A stretch of 63,245 nucleotides of DNA, the filler included, from Thraustochytrium aureum (lineage: Eukaryota): the NCBI GenBank assembly GCA_012862495.1. It is 6 parts of 4 records of this genome, joined end to end, with 100 filler letters (N's around TTAATTAATTAA, not from the genome) between each part and the next. Parts side by side here need not be neighbours in the genome. Positions count along the whole stretch, not along the records: positions 1 to 15,372 come from BLSG01000165.1; 5 more parts are not named here. One strand, 5' to 3'. The notes under the pieces were generated by a model, which was not told where the DNA came from, searched no databases, and was given only the letters and a program-made list of their open reading frames with translations. Shown here one piece after another: positions 11,057 through 63,245 of this stretch. The stretch's first letter is position 1. Every line of letters starts with the position of its first letter. A program made the position numbers and the translations under genes.

Positions 11057-14000
11057 TTACCATTGAATCGCAACGGTTCTGCCCAGGAACGCATCAATCC
11101 GGTCGAGTATCACTGGCGGCAGCGCGTTTTCCTCGCCCAAAACATCCATCATACGACGTTTCTTTCGAACCTGGTATTGCGCCACCCCGGCCAGCGCGCC
11201 GGATCCTGCATTGCCGATTCTGTTAAACCGAAGACTGTTGTTGAAATCGTCGTTCGATGATGACGATGGTCGCGCGAGTTGGTCAGCCGCCAACGCGAAA
11301 CACAGGTCAGTCTGTTTGCCTATGCCGGCATGGGGCAGGTACGAGCGCATTCGACAGCCACCAGCGCACTGCCATCTCTGCACGACTTACATCAACGAAG
11401 TCAGCGTCGAGTTGGTCTCGAGCACCTTGGCCAGCGCGTCAGCCCCTGCAGCGCCGATTTCGTTGCTGGAAAGACTATTTGTTGTTTGTCGTGCCATGAT
11501 CACGATGGTTACGCGAGTTGGTCAGCCACCGCCGAGAAATGCAGCGCGGTGCGGCCGCGCGAGCAGGCTCTGTCTGTTGGGCAGGGCACGAGCGCACTCG
11601 ACAGCCACCCACACATTGCCATCCCTGCCACGACTTACTCTAGCGAAGTCAGTGTCCAGTTGGACTTGAGAGCTTTCGCCAGCGCGCCAGCCCCTGCAGC
11701 ACCGATTTTGTTGGCGGCAAGACTGGTGGTGGTGGTGGTGATGGTGGTGGTGGTGGTGGTGGTGATGATCGATAATGACGATGGTCGCGCGAGTTGGTCA
11801 GCCACCGCCGAGAAACACAGCGCGGTGTGGCCGGGCAAACAGGCTCTGTCTGCATATATGCTGGCACGAGGCAGGCTCGAGCGCACTCGACGGCCACGAG
11901 CATACTCGACAGCCACCAGTCACTTGACAGCCACGAGCGCACTGCCATCCCTGCCACGACTTACTTGAGACTAGTCAGCGTCGAGTTGGTCTTGAGCGCC
12001 TTGGCAAGCGCGCATGCTCCTGGAGCACCGATGCTGTTGGCGGAAAGACTGGCGGTGGTGGTCGTGGTGGTGGTGATGATGTTGATGATGTTTGATATGG
12101 ACGAGGGTCGCGCAGTTAGCAAGCCACCGCCGAGTAACACAGCGCGCCGCAGCCGCGCAGGCAGGCTCTGTCTGCATGCATGCAGGCACGCGGCACCCAA
12201 TTGCGCACTCGACAAGAACCAGCACTCGTCCATTCCTGCCACGACTTACTTGAGACCAGTCAGCGTCGAGTTACTCTTGAGCGCCTTGGCCACCGCGCCA
12301 GAAACTGCATTTCCGATTTCGTTGCTGGAAAGACTATTTGTTGTTTGTCGTTCGACGATGACGATGGTCGCGTGAGTTTGTCAGCCTCCGCCGAGAAACA
12401 CAGCGCGGTGCGGCCGCGCAAGTAGGCGCGCTGTCTGTGTGCATGCAGGCCCGAGGCAGGCACGAGCGCACTCGAAAGCCGCACGCGCAATGCCATCCTT
12501 GCCACGACTTACTTGAGCCAAGTCAGCGTCGAGTTGGTCTTGAGCACCTTGGCGAGCGCGCCAGCCCCTGCAGTGCCGATTTGGTTGCCCCAATACTGTT
12601 GTGGTTGTCGTTNNNNNNNNNNNNNNNNNNNNNNNNNNNNNNNNNNNNNNNNNNNNNNNNNNNNNNNNNNNNNNNNNNNNNNNNNNNNNNNNNNNNNNNN
12701 NNNNNNNNNNNNNNNNNNNNNNNNNNNNNNNNNNNNNNNNNNNNNNNNNNNNNNNNNNNNNNNNNNNNNNNNNNNNNNNNNNNNNNNNNNNNNNNNNNNN
12801 NNNNNNNNNNNNNNNNNNNNNNNNNNNNNNNNNNNNNNNNNNNNNNNNNNNNNNNNNNNNNNTGATGATGGTGGTGGTGGTGGTGATGATGATGATGTTG
12901 ATGTTGTTGTTCGATGATCACGTGGTCGCGCGAGCTGGTCAGCCAGTACCGACAAACACGGATCGGCGAACCGCGCAAGAGGGCTCTGTCTGTACGCTTG
13001 CAGGCCTGAGGCCGCCACGAGCGCACTCGGAGGCAACCAGCGCACCCGACCGCCACCAGAGCACTGCCATCCCCGCCACGACTTACTGGAGCGAAGCGAG
13101 AGTCGAGTTGGTCTCGAGCACCTTGGCCAGCGCGCAAGCCCCTGGGTCGCGGATTCGGTTGAAGCCAAGACTGGTGGTGGTGGTGGTGGTGGTGATGTTG
13201 TCGTCGTCGTGCGATGATGGCGATGTTCGCGCGAGTTGGTCAGCCACCACCGAGAAGGAAGCAAACAGGCTCTCCCTTTATGCATGCACGCACGAGGCAG
13301 GCTCGCACGCACTCGACGGCCGCTAGCGTATTGCCATCCTGACACGACTTACGAGAGCGAAGTCAGCGTCGAGTTGGTCTCGAGCACCTTGGCCAGTGCC
13401 TCAGCCCCTTCGTCGCCTATACAGTTGTCCCGAAGACTGATGTGTTGGTCGTTGTTCGATTTCACGAGAGTCGCGCGAGTTGGTTAGCGACCGCCGTGAA
13501 ACACAGAGCGGCGCGGTCGCGCAAACAGGCTCTGTGTGTATGCATGCAGGCACGAGCACGCTCGACAGCCAGCCGCGCATTGCCATCCCTGCCACGACTT
13601 ACTCCAGCGAAGTCAGCGTCCAGTTGGACTTGAGACCCTTGGCCAGCGCGCCAGCCCCTGCGTCTTCGATGCCGTTGTTAACAAGACTGTTGTTGTTGTT
13701 GTCGTCGTCGTGGTTCGAAGACGATGATCGCGCGAGTTGGTTAGCGACCGCCGCGAAACACGCAGCGCGCAGTCGCGCAAGCAGGCTCTGTCTGTACGCT
13801 TGCAGGGACGTGGCAGCCGCCAGCACACTCGACAGCCACCAGCGCAATGCCATCCCTGCCACGACTTACTTGAGCTCAGTCAGCGTCGAGTTGGCCTCGA
13901 GCACTTTGGCCAGAGCGCCAGCCGCTGCATCGCCGATTCTGTTCCTTTCAAGGCTGTTGTTGTTGTTGTGGTGGTGGTGGTGGTGGTGGCGGTGGGGTAT

Positions 14001-14881
14001 CGATGAATACGTTGGTTGCGTGAGTTGGTCAGCCATCAACAAGAAACCCAGAGCGGCGCCGCGCAAGCCAGCTCTGTCTGTACGCATGCAGGCACGAGAC
14101 AGGCATGAGCACACTCGCCAGCGAAGGGTCATCCTGCCACGACTTACTTGAGATGTGTGAGCGTCGAATTTGTCTCGAGCGCTTTGGACAACCCGTCAGC
14201 CACTGCAGCGCCGATTTCGTTGTGCGTAAGACTGTTATTGTAGTTGATGTTGTTCGACGACGACGATCGTCGCGAAAGTTAGTCAGCCACCACCGACGAA
14301 CACAGAGTGGCGCGCAAGCAAGCAAGCGCTGCCTATTACGCATGCAGGCACGAGCGCATCGACAGCCACCGCCCAGTGCCAAATCTGCCACGACTTACTT
14401 GAGCGAAGTCAGCGTCGAGTTGGTCTCGAGCACCTTGGCCAGCGCGTCAGCCCCTGCAGCGCCAATGTACTTGGCGGTAAGACTGATGATGTTGATAGTG
14501 ACGATGTTGCTCGATGATGACGAGGGTCACGCGAGTTGGTCAGAATCACCGAGAAACACAGCGCAGTGCAAGCAGGATCTGTCTGTTTGCATGCAGCCAC
14601 GAGGCNNNNNNNNNNNNNNNNNNNNNNNNNNNNNNNNNNNNNNNNNNNNNNNNNNNNNNNNNNNNNNNNNNNNNNNNNNNNNNNNNNNNNNNNNNNNNNN
14701 NNNNNNNNNNNNNNNNNNNNNNNNNNNNNNNNNNNNNNNNNNNNNNNNNNNNNNNNNNNNNNNTGCAGCCACGAGGCAGGCACGGGCGCACTCGACAACA
14801 CCAGCCATAAACTCACTCGATCGACGTCTCCCCGCGCTCCACCACGGCCGCTGCCTCCTCGACGTTGAGACATCTCACCAT
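11057..14881 (-). CDS. Spliced RI-like (28-aa) leucine-rich-repeat protein, one LRR per exon
   Basis: First exon 14881-14817 (MVRCLNVEEAAAVVERGETSI, GTGAGT donor). LRR exons 14482-14399, 14231-14148, 13953-13870, 13686-13603, 13436-13353, 13170-13087, 12595-12513 (83 nt), 12333-12250, 12048-11965, 11722-11639, 11474-11391. Terminal exon 11234-11057. LRR-exon donors are GTAAGT, acceptors YAG, phase 2; consensus LxxNxIGxxGAxALAKxLxxNSTLTxL. Confidence 0.9.
11235..14605 (-). repeat. Tandem array of ~240-330 bp exon-intron modules
   Basis: Introns share GTAAGTCGTGGCAGG.ATGGCA at the 5' end, internal GTCGAGTGCGCTCGTGCC and ACAGAGCCTG, branch GCTGACCAACTCGCGCGAC, and a CAC/CAA/CAT microsatellite before the AG. 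Confidence 0.92.
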
Positions 14882-15416
14882 CTTGCGTGCCTGCCCTGCC
14901 GCGAAACTCGCAAGCCCCTCGCGCAGGGAGCGCAAGCCAAGGCCCGGCCCCAAGCGCGTGCAGCCCTGGCCTGGCGGGGACACCTCGACCCGGGCCCGCT
15001 GCCCTCCCTCGGTCCGCGTTGCGTGACTGCAGCATCGCCGAGGTCGCTTCCACGGTCTTCCTCGCGAAAGCGCTCACGGAACGCGTGCTGGAGCATCCAG
15101 TGACGGTCGGCCGCGAGCTGAGGAGCCCCCAGACCAGTCCCGTTGGGCCAGTGCCGTGGGGCCCGGGCGGGCAACCAAGAGCCTGAAGACGGCGAAGGGC
15201 CCGACGGTTGACGGCGCTCGTCGGAGATCTTCGTGGTGGCGCATCGCGGTCCGAGGCGTGGCGCGACTGCGCCAAGTCGAGGTGTTCAAGTCTGGCTGGC
15301 CACGGGTTGCACGCGCTTGGGGCGGGGGCTTGGCTTGCGTTCCCAGCGCTTTGCGAGCTCTTTGGGCTGCAGNNNNNNNNNNNNNNNNNNNNNNNNNNNN
15401 NNNNNNNNNNNNNNNN

Positions 15417-15492: not shown

Positions 15493-18400
15493 TCAGAGGT
15501 GCGCGGCGTTGCGCAGCGGAGGGATCATGCGGTCGAACGTGTACACCAAACCATCAACGCAGCCTACAGCCACGATGCGATTTGTCGCAGCAACTGATGT
15601 TGGGTGGGAGGGGAGCGATAGGTTGGCCACGAGAGCTTTGGCCTCCTCTGCCCGCGCGGCTGCGTCGCTCACGCCCCTGCACTGACTCCATTGAACGCGC
15701 GCTTTGTCAGCGTCCCTGTCTTCCTCCAAGACGAGCAGCTGCCTTTGGCTGCGCGGGCCCCACCACCGTCGCCGTTTGCGCACATCCCACACGCGCAGAG
15801 TATTGTCCCTTGACCGCGATACCACCCGGTTGCCATCAAGCACAGCGACGCTCCTCACAACGTCCGAATGGCCTCGAAGAACGATCGGGGCTGCGCCATC
15901 GCTCCGAAGATCCCAGACACGCACCGTGTCGTCAAAGGAGCCTGACACGACCCGGTTGCTGTCCAGCACGGCGACACTCGTACCCAACCTGAATGGCCCT
16001 CGAGCGTCAGCGGGTCGGCAATGCGCTCACTGCGCAGATCCCAGACCCGCAGAGTGGCATCTGGGGAACCCGAGATGACCAAGCGGTCTTCCAACACAGC
16101 CAGGCAACTCACGGCGCGAGAGTGGCCCTCTACAGGTCGGGGGCCAGTTTTGGCATCTGTGCGGAGATCCCAGACCCGGACCGTCATGTCCGGCGAACCC
16201 GACACCACTCGATGGGCATCCAGAACAGCGACGCTTCGCACCATATCAGCGTGCCCTTGGAGGACAATGTCGTGCTTGGCCGCCGCGCTGCGGAGGTCCC
16301 AGACGCGTACTGTGTTGTCGTACGAGCCGGATACGATCCTGTTGCTGTCCATGACGGAGACGCTCGTCACAAACCCTGCGTGACCCTCGAGCACCAGCGC
16401 GGCGCCGTGGAGGTCTTGCAAATTCCAAACCCGCAGTGTCATGTCTTTGGACCCCGACACAACCCTGTGACCATCTAGCACAGCTACGGTTGTCACGCAA
16501 TCACGGTGGCCCTCGAGGACCACTTCTCTGCCCTCGCGGCGCAGATCCCACAGCCGTACGGTGCAGTCGTACGAACCCGACACGATCGTGTGACTCTTCA
16601 ACACTGCGACGCACGTTACAAAGCAAGTGTGGCCTTGCAGCACCACCGTCCTGCCGAGATTGCGAAGATCCCAAACCCGCAATGTGTTGTCGTAGGAGCC
16701 AGACACCACTCTATCTCTGTCAATAATTGCCACACTAGAGACAAACGAAGTGTGGCCTTCGAGCACTACTGCGGGGCTGTGGGCGTCCAGGTCCCAAACC
16801 CGCACCGTCCTATCCCTCGAGCCCGACACCACCCTGCTCCCTTCTAAAACAGCGACACACGTCACCAAGCGAGTGTGGCCGGAGAGAACGATCTTTGGCC
16901 CGGCGCTGTTGCCCAGCTCCCACACCTCTACGCGGTTTCCCGAACCCACAACAAGCCTTTGGCTGCTCGGCAGGGCGGCAACGCTTCGCACATCGCCACC
17001 GCTCGCAAAAATCCTTTCGAGATGCGTGCGTGCAAGCGGAAAGCTCGCTCGCGTGGGCCTGAGCCACTCCTTTCGCAGCACAAAAGCCCAGCTCCGCATG
17101 ATGCTCTGAAGCGCAGGATGGCCCCTGTCACGGATGCGACCAAACAGATGGGTTGCGAGGGTGTCCGGGTCCTTCTCGATGTCTGCCTTGGCGAGTTTGA
17201 GGGTTCGCGCCACGTCCATCGCGCTCTCAATCCGCCTTTCGCTCGGCCACTCGTCGACGCAGTCGCTAAATATGGCGCTGCGAACGCGAGCCGGGTCCGT
17301 GCTGAGCGCTCGGTGCAGCCAGGCAAAGTCGAGGAGCTTCGCAGCAGCAGCCTCCCACTGCTTGCTCCTCAAGAGGTGGAACAGCAGGTTGCGAGCAGCA
17401 AAAGCGGAACGGGCGTCAGCGCCATTCAGGACGCGTGCAAGTCGCACATGGCCGTCCTCCACACTGACAGCGAATGCCTCGCCGTGGTAGTTCTGCCCTC
17501 GCGCACTGATCCTGCCAGCGCGGCGCTCATCGAGGAGAAAGTCGACCATTGACCGGTGAATGAAGGCAACCGAGTCCTCGCGCACGTCCAACAAGACGCT
17601 TGCTTTGCGGAGGAAGCGCAAAAGCTCCTNNNNNNNNNNNNNNNNNNNNNNNNNNNNNNNNNNNNNNNNNNNNNNNNNNNNNNNNNNNNNNNNNNNNNNN
17701 NNNNNNNNNNNNNNNNNNNNNNNNNNNNNNNNNNNNNNNNNNNNNNNNNNNNNNNNNNNNNNNNNNNNNNNNNNNNNNNNNNNNNNNNNNNNNNNNNNNN
17801 NNNNNNNNNNNNNNNNNNNNNNNNNNNNNNNNNNNNNNNNNNNNNNNNNNNNNNNNNNNNNNNNNNNNNNNNNNNNNNNNNNNNNNNNNNNNNNNNNNNN
17901 NNNNNNNNNNNNNNNNNNNNNNNNNNNNNNNNNNNNNNNNNNNNNNNNNNNNNNNNNNNNNNNNNNNNNNNNNNNNNNNNNNNNNNNNNNNNNNNNNNNN
18001 NNNNNNNNNNNNNNNNNNNNNNNNNNNNNNNNNNNNNNNNNNNNNNNNNNNNNNNNNNNNNNNNNNNNNNNNNNNNNNNNNNNNNNNNNNNNNNNNNNNN
18101 NNNNNNNNNNNNNNNNNNNNNNNNNNNNNNNNNNNNNNNNNNNNNNNNNNNNNNCCTTGCTGGCGAACCGGACCTCCTCAAGACCGAGGCCCCGTGGACG
18201 GGCGCTTGCTAGCCCGGCGGCTGAACAGTCCGCCTTCGTGACAGAGCCTCGCCATAAGCACCGACTTGCCACAACCAGCAGGCCCGAGAATCACCATGGC
18301 GCGGCGCTTCTCCTTCCACAGCTCATCGCTGTACCAGCGACGAACGTCATCAATGACCGCCTTGCGCGTGCCCTCCTCAAAGTCTCCAGACTTGAGTTGG

Positions 18401-19009
18401 GCTGTGAGCAAAGGGTTAAAGTCCGCAGGCGTCTCGAAAACCTTGACAGCCCAACTATTGCGGGGCTTCTTCGCCGAGGCCGCGCGCGACCGGTCGACCG
18501 CAGCTTTGGTCTTGTCCGCAATGATGGCAGCAAGACCTGACATGGCTGCGCCAAAATCTCCAACCAGTTTCTGAAAGAGCTCTTGGCCTAAGCCTGCGCC
18601 AACGTGCCGTCCCCAGCTGCGCGAGTCCGCGAGCAGTTTGGACGCTACAAGCGGCACAACGCGGCCGCTCGGGCCTTTGAGCCTCAAGGCCACGCGGAAC
18701 TCGTGTTTGCACCTGTCCTCGTCGTCCCCGAAGTTGACCTCGCGCACATAGTCCTCCGTCAACAGAATGACAACAACATCGGCGCTGCCAATCCTGTCCG
18801 CTGCTGCAGCCCCGCCCTGGGTTCTCGCGGCAGGCGCCCGGTCGTACCACACCTCCCAGCCTTTGGAGCGTTGCAGCCAGGCCTGCAGCCTCGCCCACCA
18901 GAATCTGCGCGGCCCGTCCGTCAACGACAGACGCGGGCTCGTACAAGACCACAACACTGAGCGGCCTGCCGCCGCGCATTTCAGGCTCTAACGCCTTGCC
19001 GCCCGTCAT
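15493..19009 (-). CDS. TIR-like - NACHT/STAND NTPase - WD40 repeat protein (NLR-like); several apparent frameshifts (~18895, ~18200, ~15982) and an N gap
   Basis: TIR-like WEVWYD...ADVVVILLTEDY...CKHEF...VVPLV; Walker A ILGPAGCGKS; winged-helix-like FIHRSMVDFL; about 10 repeats of L.GH...V..VAVLD..RVVSGS.D.T.RVWDL. Confidence 0.85.
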
Positions 19010-21373: not shown

Positions 21374-21417
21374 NNNNNNNNNNNNNNNNNNNNNNNNNNN
21401 NNNNNNNNNNNNNNNNN

Positions 21418-62194: not shown

Positions 62195-63245
62195 GCCATG
62201 ACAGGACGGTGATGGTCTGGGACGCCAACAGCGGCCAGAAGCTCCAGCTTCTCGAAGGTCACACGACTTGGGTACTCTCTGTCGCGCTCTCTGGAAACGG
62301 CGAACACATTGCATCCGGCAGTGTTGACGATGTGCGGGTTTGGGACGCCACAACCGGCAAGGAAATCCAGCGCCTCAATGGCCACGCCTCTTTTGTCATG
62401 GCCGTGGCCCTCTCGCATAACGGCGATCGCATCGTTTCGGGGAGCTACGACCGCACCTTGCGGGTCTGGGACGCCAGGACTGGGCAGGAGATCCAGCGCC
62501 TCGAGGGACACAGCCATAGGGTAAGTGCCGTGGCCATCTCGCCTGATGGGAACCGCGTCATTTCGGGTAGCTGGGACAACACCGTGCGGGTTTGGGACGC
62601 CAGGACCGGGCAGGAGCTCCGGCGTCTTGAGGGACACACGTCGAGGGTCAACTCCGTGGCCATCTCGCGCGATGGAGACCGCATTGTTTCGGGGAGCGGT
62701 GACGACGACGTACACGGCGACAAAACCATACGGGTCTGGAACCCAAGGACCGGGCAGGAGCTCCGGCGATACGAGGGACACACCAATGAAGTCAAAGCCG
62801 TGGCCCTCTCGCGCGACGGGGAATGTATCGTGTCCGGTAGCTACGACGAAACCGTGCGGGTCTGGGAAGCGAACTCCTGTCAGGACCTTCATCGCCTAGA
62901 AGGGCACACTGATACCGTGAACGCCGTCGCCCTTTCTCGCGACCATCAGCGGATCGTGTCCGGCAGTAGCGATATGACTGTGCGAGTCTGGAACACGAAG
63001 ACGGGGCAAGAGCTCCAGCGGCTCGATGGACACGCTTGGCGGGTCTCGGCCGTTGCCCTCTCAGACAATGGCGATCGCATCGTTTCGGGGAGCTACGACC
63101 GCACCTTGCGGGTCTGGGACGCAAAGACCGGTCAGGAGGTTCGGCGGCTCGATGGACACACCGGTCCAGTCAATGCCGTGGCCCTCTCTGGCGATGGGGA
63201 GCGCATAGTGTCCTTCAGCGGCCACTTTGGCGACAGTGTGGTGCG
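62195..63245 (+). CDS. Internal fragment of a protein with highly similar tandem WD40 repeats (HET-E/NWD-like); missed by the ORF track
   Basis: Open frame with about 8 units of L.GH...V.AVA.S.DG.RIVSGS.D.T.RVWD..TGQE. Confidence 0.92.

Follow-up and report, generated by a model that had tools for sequence, protein, structure and literature searches.

The minus strand of a 63-kb stretch of Thraustochytrium aureum DNA (assembly GCA_012862495.1) carries, between positions 14881 and 11057, a gene in which leucine-rich repeats (LRRs) follow one another, each on an exon of its own, and the locus raises the question of how such an array generates variation and what purpose that variation might serve. 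We refer to the whole 63-kb stretch as the window, and all positions count along this joined stretch. The gene is expressed and is predicted to encode a cytosolic NLRC3-type LRR protein of about 390-420 residues, and we consider it probable that its predicted binding surface has been remodelled over generations by recombination between cassettes together with positive selection.

The gene begins with a short exon, continues with internal LRR exons, of which 11 are visible and numbered E1 to E11 (14482 to 11391), and closes with a terminal exon. Ten of the 11 internal exons are 84 nt long and E7 is 83 nt as assembled; all are in phase 2, all end in the donor GTAAGTCG, and all are preceded by a YAG acceptor. 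The initial annotation, which had described at least 11 LRR exons in phase 2, ten of them 84 nt long, is borne out in this respect, and the nine variable tetramers that it quoted match those of E1-E6 and E8-E11. These tips are TAKY in E1 (14399-14482), THNE in E2 (14148-14231), ERNR in E3 (13870-13953), VNNG in E4 (13603-13686), RDNC in E5 (13353-13436), GFNR in E6 (13087-13170), SSNE in E8 (12250-12333), SANS in E9 (11965-12048), AANK in E10 (11639-11722), and again SSNE in E11 (11391-11474). Each exon encodes one 28-residue repeat of the form L-x-x-N-x-I-G-x-x-G-A-x-A-L-A-K-x-L-x-x-N-S-T-L-T-x-L-x, with the exon border inside the beta-strand motif. The first coding exon (14817-14881) has 65 nt, or 21 codons plus 2 nt, and thus also ends in phase 2, while the terminal exon (11057-11234) holds the last partial LRR and a tail of about 40 residues, with the stop codon 58 residues into the exon. 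The first intron (14483-14816) is homologous to the cassette introns and includes a 158-N gap; the flanks of this gap have 14 identical nucleotides in common, and simple joining would give a 162-nt intron.

Evidence of expression came from four public sequencing runs, X1 to X4, in each of which 9-17% of the words from part of the locus occur. No run is recorded as RNA, but X1, X2, and X4 were treated as RNA because their joints fall exactly on predicted introns, and X3 was taken as DNA. Joints at 14231-14399 (between E1 and E2) and 13686-13870 occur in X1, X2, and X4, and a joint at 11474-11639 occurs in X1 and X2, while none of these is among the joints listed for X3. Of the 11 places where one visible LRR exon should be spliced to the next, 10 were recovered in genomic order, the one not among them being E6-E7, which spans a gap. 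Single contigs cover several exons: in record 14 of X2 (357 nt) the listed pieces fall on E2, E3, and E4 with 0-1 differences each, and the leftover lengths fit parts of E1 and E5, while in record 27 of X4 (330 nt) the listed pieces fall on E2-E5, again with 0-1 differences each. Exact RNA cover extends over 11077-11217 of the terminal exon, and at the other end of the gene RNA depth is present in the bin 14738-14900 and absent in 14901-15063, where the DNA run has cover. The regions without cover, from E6 to the gap and from the first exon to E1, were set aside as evidence. The gene is confirmed to be expressed and spliced in genomic order.

As assembled, E7 (12513-12595) disrupts the reading frame. 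Record 11 of X2 matches 77 nt of it exactly and has one additional base, giving 84 nt and an open frame, and the 83-nt length is likely an assembly error or an allele. The gene could also have been read as a pseudogene, but this was ruled out by the RNA contig that restores the frame at E7; the adjoining WD40 gene likewise shows frame switches in the assembly. The 250-N gap (12613-12862) has an almost complete intron of 224 nt on one side and an intron end of 17 nt on the other. Because the exon joined to E7 in record 11 of X2 ends unlike any of the 11 visible exons, and because the gap equals 84 + 166 nt, it probably hides one more exon-plus-intron cassette, the alternative being that the contig derives from a paralogue with an identical E7. 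The predicted product has 388 residues, or 416 with one hidden exon.

This product is predicted to be a cytosolic protein made up almost entirely of NLRC3-type 28-residue LRRs. No hydrophobic segment was found at either end of it, and no signal peptide or transmembrane segment is predicted in the first exon (maximum hydropathy 0.15). The Pfam model LRR_6 was matched weakly by two of the four single exons tested, and when 7994 candidate proteins were searched with a profile of the exons, 88 scored E 1e-10 or better, with NLRC3-like proteins of corals, Symbiodinium, and Mortierellaceae at the top. The same profile matched eight LRR chains among solved structures, including DRC5/TCTE1 and LRRC34. 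No NACHT or NB-ARC domain was seen upstream of the LRRs, where the first exon has only 21 codons and RNA cover is absent just beyond it, and no ROC-COR after them, where the stop codon lies in the terminal exon and no Pfam family was matched.

How, then, did the repeats come to differ? The repeated unit includes the intron. Between the LRR exons lie 11 homologous phase-2 introns (11235-14398), of which the 10 that are gap-free measure 156-242 nt and have a mean pairwise identity of 0.786 (0.718-0.861), compared to 0.555 (maximum 0.613) for shuffled controls, in agreement with the mutual homology noted in the initial annotation. They have a common donor, branch motif, and A/C-rich, T-poor 3' tract, and the exon-plus-intron units, of about 250-330 nt, are alike at the nucleotide level. 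Across the 3' ends of these introns (11235-14605), the 46-74 nt from the branch motif to the AG are rich in A+C, with runs of CAC, CAA, and CAT triplets and 7-22% T instead of a U-rich tract, and this stretch holds much of the intron length variation. Within the window, a hidden Markov model (HMM) of the intron gave matches confined to 11236-14800; the initial annotation had suggested such a search genome-wide. Together with the LRR profile it found no match elsewhere in the 63 kb, none on the plus strand, and no orphan, inverted, or broken cassette, the two gaps being unseen.

The residue encoded across the splice junction had been described as variable, and it does take five different residues in 10 exons. 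However, the first base of the exon is T in 11 of 12 cases and C in the twelfth, so that the junction residue is set by the upstream exon and reordering of exons makes no new one. Junctional diversity at the split codon was ruled out as a source of variation, as its third base is always T or C.

The clearest trace of exchange is in E11, which has 39 exact nucleotides in common with E8, covering the intron end and the tip, followed by 60 exact nucleotides in common with E1. At informative sites, 20 E8-like positions are followed by 15 E1-like ones (p 5e-5, or about 0.02 after correction for 360 triplets). By this pattern E11 is a mosaic of E8-like and E1-like pieces, with apparent exchange breakpoints inside exons. 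When the cassette was divided into five segments, the distances between copies were uncorrelated in nine of the 10 segment pairs, and neighbouring exons were no closer to each other than distant ones (rho -0.15, p 0.33). The mosaic and the decoupled segments imply that the exchanged unit was often smaller than an exon, which agrees with the recombination that had been proposed and refines its picture of whole exons changing places.

The array is not alone. Contigs with at least 85% likeness to the locus number 249, 98, 332, and 92 in X1 to X4, of which 34, 7, 27, and 10 are at least 99% alike; most are thus below 99%, and these have tips absent from the locus. Loose ends show further tips and other terminal exons that are about 83% identical, and one such paralogous end retains LP-x-V while the preceding residues differ. 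Many expressed paralogous cassettes exist. An exact 38-nt intron piece, which occurs once in this array, has a depth of 236 in X3 compared to 3.4-6.3 for locus-specific pieces (about 50-fold); depth is not copy number and X3 is a mixed sample, but the value points to a single variant present in tens of copies and, probably, to cassettes in the hundreds. It is likely that the gene belongs to a large and fast-evolving family of recognition proteins. In X3, the product of another study, the flanks depart from the window at 4 of 534 and 10 of 519 letters, and five listed pieces of 170-210 nt across E1, E2, E4, E5, and E8 and their introns show 0-1 differences, so the local cassette order is common to both. 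The initial annotation had proposed a comparison of module order; X3 keeps the same local neighbours, and in these limited data no reordering was seen in X3 or in the RNA runs. Two single positions stand apart, namely 10797, where all four runs, the work of two studies, share a base unlike the window, and 12302, where X2 and X3 do so; each reflects either an error in the window or a different strain.

Differences between the exons are concentrated at a few codons. For 10 of the 11 internal exons (E7 was left out), identity ranges from 64 to 88%, and codons 2, 3, and 5 each encode seven residues in the 10 exons. At four strand sites chosen beforehand, non-synonymous divergence (pN) was 0.62 and synonymous divergence (pS) 0.36, while the other 24 sites gave 0.16 and 0.30; divergence of the intron core was about 0.24. 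Codon models M1a and M2a were fitted with custom code on a star tree and on a maximum-likelihood (ML) tree, and M2a was preferred on both, with 2ΔlnL 35.0 and omega 5.8 on the star tree and 2ΔlnL 25.4 and omega 10.1 on the ML tree. Sites 2, 3, and 5 were identified as positively selected with posteriors of at least 0.98. The codons flanking the tips are nearly invariant, and the third position of codon 3 is C in nine of the 10 exons, a pattern that speaks against local hypermutation. Positive selection acts on three codons beside the beta-strand, and the excess of non-synonymous change that had been anticipated at concave-face codons is present. Judging from LRR structure and the brown-algal counterpart, the selected positions are predicted to face a ligand on the concave surface.

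These results fit a mechanism in which an exon-plus-intron unit that is homologous along its full length, within and between genes, would allow unequal crossing-over or gene conversion to add, remove, or patch repeats, while the symmetric phase 2 would keep every product in frame. Selection would then fix changes at the residues flanking the conserved Asn, which are expected to line the concave face in this repeat class. The role of such a protein may be to bind fast-changing foreign proteins inside the cell, most plausibly viral ones. With no NACHT, ROC-COR, or kinase domain present, its output would likely run through the short conserved tail, possibly by recruitment of a ubiquitin ligase, which is the least certain step.

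Several points weigh against this interpretation. The p value of the mosaic is only about 0.02 after correction, the exon middle does correlate with the downstream intron (p 0.005), and the short segments leave the correlation test with little power. The selection test comprises 10 sequences of 28 codons analysed with custom codon-model code; site 26 was selected on the star tree only, and the split-codon site 28 on neither tree. The joint between the first exon and E1 is absent among the RNA rows listed, in a region without cover, and several of the joints listed at 85% likeness are non-collinear. Family size is estimated from a depth in a mixed sample, and the immune role is put forward as a proposal.

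The ligand is also where the leading alternative enters, namely that the diversified binders serve in a role other than defence, such as self/non-self recognition between strains or the control of selfish elements or of fast-evolving host proteins. The sequence signals cannot tell which ligand drives selection, and a gene of NLR-like architecture adjoins the array. This gene, directly upstream at 15493-19000 on the minus strand, encodes a TIR_2 domain (E 1.9e-7), a P-loop domain (NACHT-like, weak), and WD40 repeats; in this assembly it has frame switches near 15960 and in the TIR part, and it ends at its own stop near 15493. Genes of this TIR-P-loop-WD40 type reportedly serve allorecognition in fungi. 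A cytosolic LRR-only protein with many copies would nonetheless fit multiple foreign targets better than one self locus, and we regard a non-defence role as unlikely.

If the array does serve defence as we favour, the tail is the candidate for its output. It has a basic patch, RKKRR, in a predicted long helix, followed by a second, LP-led helix, LPPVILDRIDAFL, seven residues before the stop; both helices are those of a single-sequence structure model (pLDDT 60). Searches of the tail against Pfam returned no family at E 0.1 or 1, including no F-box or SOCS-box model, Foldseek and the PDB yielded no fold match, and PDB sequences gave one chance-level match to a RelB peptide (E 1.5). A word-index search for the tail among longer proteins gave none in 71 candidates, and in a protein atlas it fell into generic LRR_6 or unnamed clusters at 0.89-0.92. 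The full HMMER library produced two matches, both to tandem-repeat proteins that score by summed repeats and were discarded as artefacts; in one of these two proteins the repeat weakly matches an F-box-like Pfam model, no more than a hint. A reading of the tail as a BC-box was ruled out because it overlaps the normal LRR helix and because the small residue is missing from a paralogue. We take the LP-led helix to resemble the first helix of an F-box. In cowpox CP77 a single helix suffices for binding to Skp1, as described in part of PMC4353913, and it is possible, though tentative, that the tail is a ligase adaptor with a candidate one-helix F-box.

A more ambitious version of this interpretation can be considered, in which interchangeable 84-nt cassettes, numbering tens to hundreds across the genome and patched by sub-exon conversion, would supply intracellular binders that each carry a one-helix F-box and recruit a cullin ligase, giving an antibody-like degradative defence against resident giant viruses and mirusviruses. 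Thraustochytrids host persistent viruses according to the sections available of PMC12606086, but the scheme as a whole seems to us rather improbable.

Another alternative is that splicing makes the repertoire, with cells skipping or combining exons of one gene, as available portions of two studies (PMC11378527, PMC6642158) report for brown-algal ROCO genes and human NLRP3. The initial annotation had allowed for this, and the symmetric exons and near-identical donors would permit it. Some joints listed also appear to support it. At 85% likeness several are non-collinear, but where the letters in between are given, the tips are foreign to this locus, and for most of the remainder those letters are not known; in X4, a row from an E1-like to an E11-like exon is equal in depth to a contig that differs at 10 of 72 nt, and for that reason we read the row as a paralogue. 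At 97% likeness, which covers E5-E10 only, three joints are listed, namely E10-E11 placed on the wrong copy, the joint to the hidden exon, and a joint that includes 38 foreign letters. A further row at 97%, from X1 (12332 to 11642, with four letters between), fits no junction of the locus and is probably a paralogue. No exon skip matching the locus was found among the RNA contig joints listed, although contigs drop rare forms and occasional skipping could occur; with contigs only, a depth of about 3-15 in X2 and X4, and a further 107 joints at 85% and 64 pieces at 97% beyond those listed, such negatives on skipping and reordering have low power. The collinearity of 10 of 11 visible junctions and the unbranched 330-357-nt contigs over four or five exons speak for a single order, and skipping would leave the selection and the mosaic exons unexplained. 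Splicing as the source of diversity is thus quite unlikely.

The array could instead be a tandem repeat that expands neutrally, its variable positions being unconstrained surface with no changing ligand. Introns and exons are similarly diverged, at 79% and 74% identity, as repeated duplication would give. Relaxed constraint, however, should bring omega near 1, and a class with omega 6-10 is strongly preferred: in 60 neutral simulations (30 + 30, with three independently evolving blocks and a star-tree fit) the maxima of 2ΔlnL were 8.5 and 19.0, below both observed values in every case. The near-invariant flanking codons, the conserved C at codon 3, and the fact that the gene is spliced and expressed also speak against neutrality, which we find very doubtful. 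Weakest of all is the adaptive-like repertoire formed by somatic or clone-by-clone rearrangement from a donor pool, in the manner of the lamprey VLRs to which the array was first likened, and proposed, though not demonstrated, for Ectocarpus in the accessible part of PMC3341825: a large cassette pool with homologous flanks and a sub-exon patchwork resembling conversion tracts would suit it, but it is highly improbable given that the gene is complete in place with no orphan, inverted, or broken cassette in 63 kb (a search of low power), that the RNA runs of one study and the DNA run of another agree with the window in local order, each listed piece showing 0-1 differences, and that exons 64-88% identical imply that exchange is not continuous. 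A repertoire made by splicing or somatically is unsupported.

The window has several other features. A short element at 15109-15141, upstream of the gene, stands out in the DNA run by its higher depth and numerous loose ends and is probably a dispersed repeat. Further upstream are two long open reading frames (ORFs) with weak P-loop matches, at 21374-23272 on the plus strand (AAA_16/dynamin-like) and at 26154-27880 on the minus strand (AAA_22). Between them, at 24916-25995 on the minus strand, lies an intronless ORF of 359 residues with a weak match to PF25743, the Ictalurid herpesvirus 1 ORF27 family (E 0.0019, below the cut-off); it could be a mirusvirus-like gene, and a search against viral contigs found no relative. 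A WD40 array at 62197-63245 on the plus strand, which runs off the window, has a nucleotide-level periodicity of 126 nt (65-76% matches) and recalls fungal HNWD repeats evolving in concert. For a P450 encoded in the window, the closest clusters that bear a name are those of Mucochytrium quahogii (74%) and Aplanochytrium stocchinoi (70%), and on this one gene a labyrinthulomycete host is likely.

The gene resembles several known systems, yet by the domains that define those systems it is not a ROCO, NLR, or VLR gene. In lampreys, donor cassettes are brought somatically into an incomplete VLR gene, whose products are secreted or surface-bound. The array has in common with VLRs variable LRR modules with variation on the concave face, while the gene described here is complete, contains introns, and has a product predicted to be cytosolic. 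The closest parallel in a unicellular host is Tetrahymena, for which the available passages of Xiong et al. 2019 (PMC6564038) describe LRR genes in the thousands, in which 90-bp exons alternate with phase-2 introns, the repeat units are alike at the nucleotide level, and ectopic recombination takes place. As in group III of these genes, the array described here has one-repeat exons of equal length, phase-2 introns with a junction residue, and alike units; the within-gene mosaic may be the counterpart of ectopic recombination, and the paralogous contigs and the deep intron piece may be that of the large family. The repeats differ, being 28 residues of NLRC3 type on 84-nt exons here and 30 residues on 90-bp exons there. 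The link to REP retrotransposons and the germline/soma split are features of Tetrahymena in those passages, in which the term "positive selection" does not appear.

Among stramenopiles, brown algae have 72-nt phase-2 LRR exons with positive selection on the concave face, also in LRR-only loci, as reported in the parts consulted of Zambounis et al. 2012 (PMC3341825) and Teng et al. 2024 (PMC11378527). These type I exons and the thraustochytrid gene have in common a single LRR per phase-2 exon, concave-face selection, and LRR-only loci, whereas the 72-nt length, the ROC-COR effector of the ROCO genes, intronic cassettes that are inverted or non-coding, and splice variants are described on the algal side and were not seen here. 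In vertebrates, according to excerpts of Hoss et al. 2019 (PMC6642158), each LRR exon of most NOD and NLRC genes encodes a single repeat of 28 residues; the likeness extends to the RI-type repeat, the frame-preserving exon, and a border at a fixed place in the beta-sheet, while in the T. aureum gene there is no NACHT or death-fold domain and the introns are mutually homologous and the exons mosaic. Poxviral ANK/F-box proteins, in the portion of PMC4353913 at hand, similarly have a repeat domain followed by a short C-terminal LP-led helix, but the repeats are ankyrin repeats rather than LRRs, and no F-box model matches the tail here. Related layouts also occur in metagenomes: contigs L027 (644-1251, plus strand) and L058 (minus strand), from another eukaryote, have 81-90-nt phase-2 LRR exons and mutually similar introns with a common motif, which are unrelated to those of the window and in some cases apparently have GC donors. 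A metagenome scan with a strict donor pattern gave no matches, and a looser pattern gave 114 loci, of which none matched the intron HMM and three had LRR matches.

Exon-per-repeat LRR arrays have been proposed as immune receptors of protists and algae since 2012, without direct evidence of a ligand or of defence in the consulted parts of the papers cited, and our search, which left most subscription papers outside, found no publication on such arrays in thraustochytrids or labyrinthulomycetes. The design itself is already known from ciliates, brown algae, and vertebrates, and no adaptive or splicing-based repertoire is shown here. What this locus brings together in one case is the layout, confirmed splicing, an apparent mosaic exon, positively selected codons on the predicted binding face, and expressed paralogues that probably form a large family. 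Thraustochytrids can be cultured and transformed. As the lineage is also one with persistent viruses, as set out in part of PMC12606086, the hypothesis that these proteins act as receptors would be directly testable in it.

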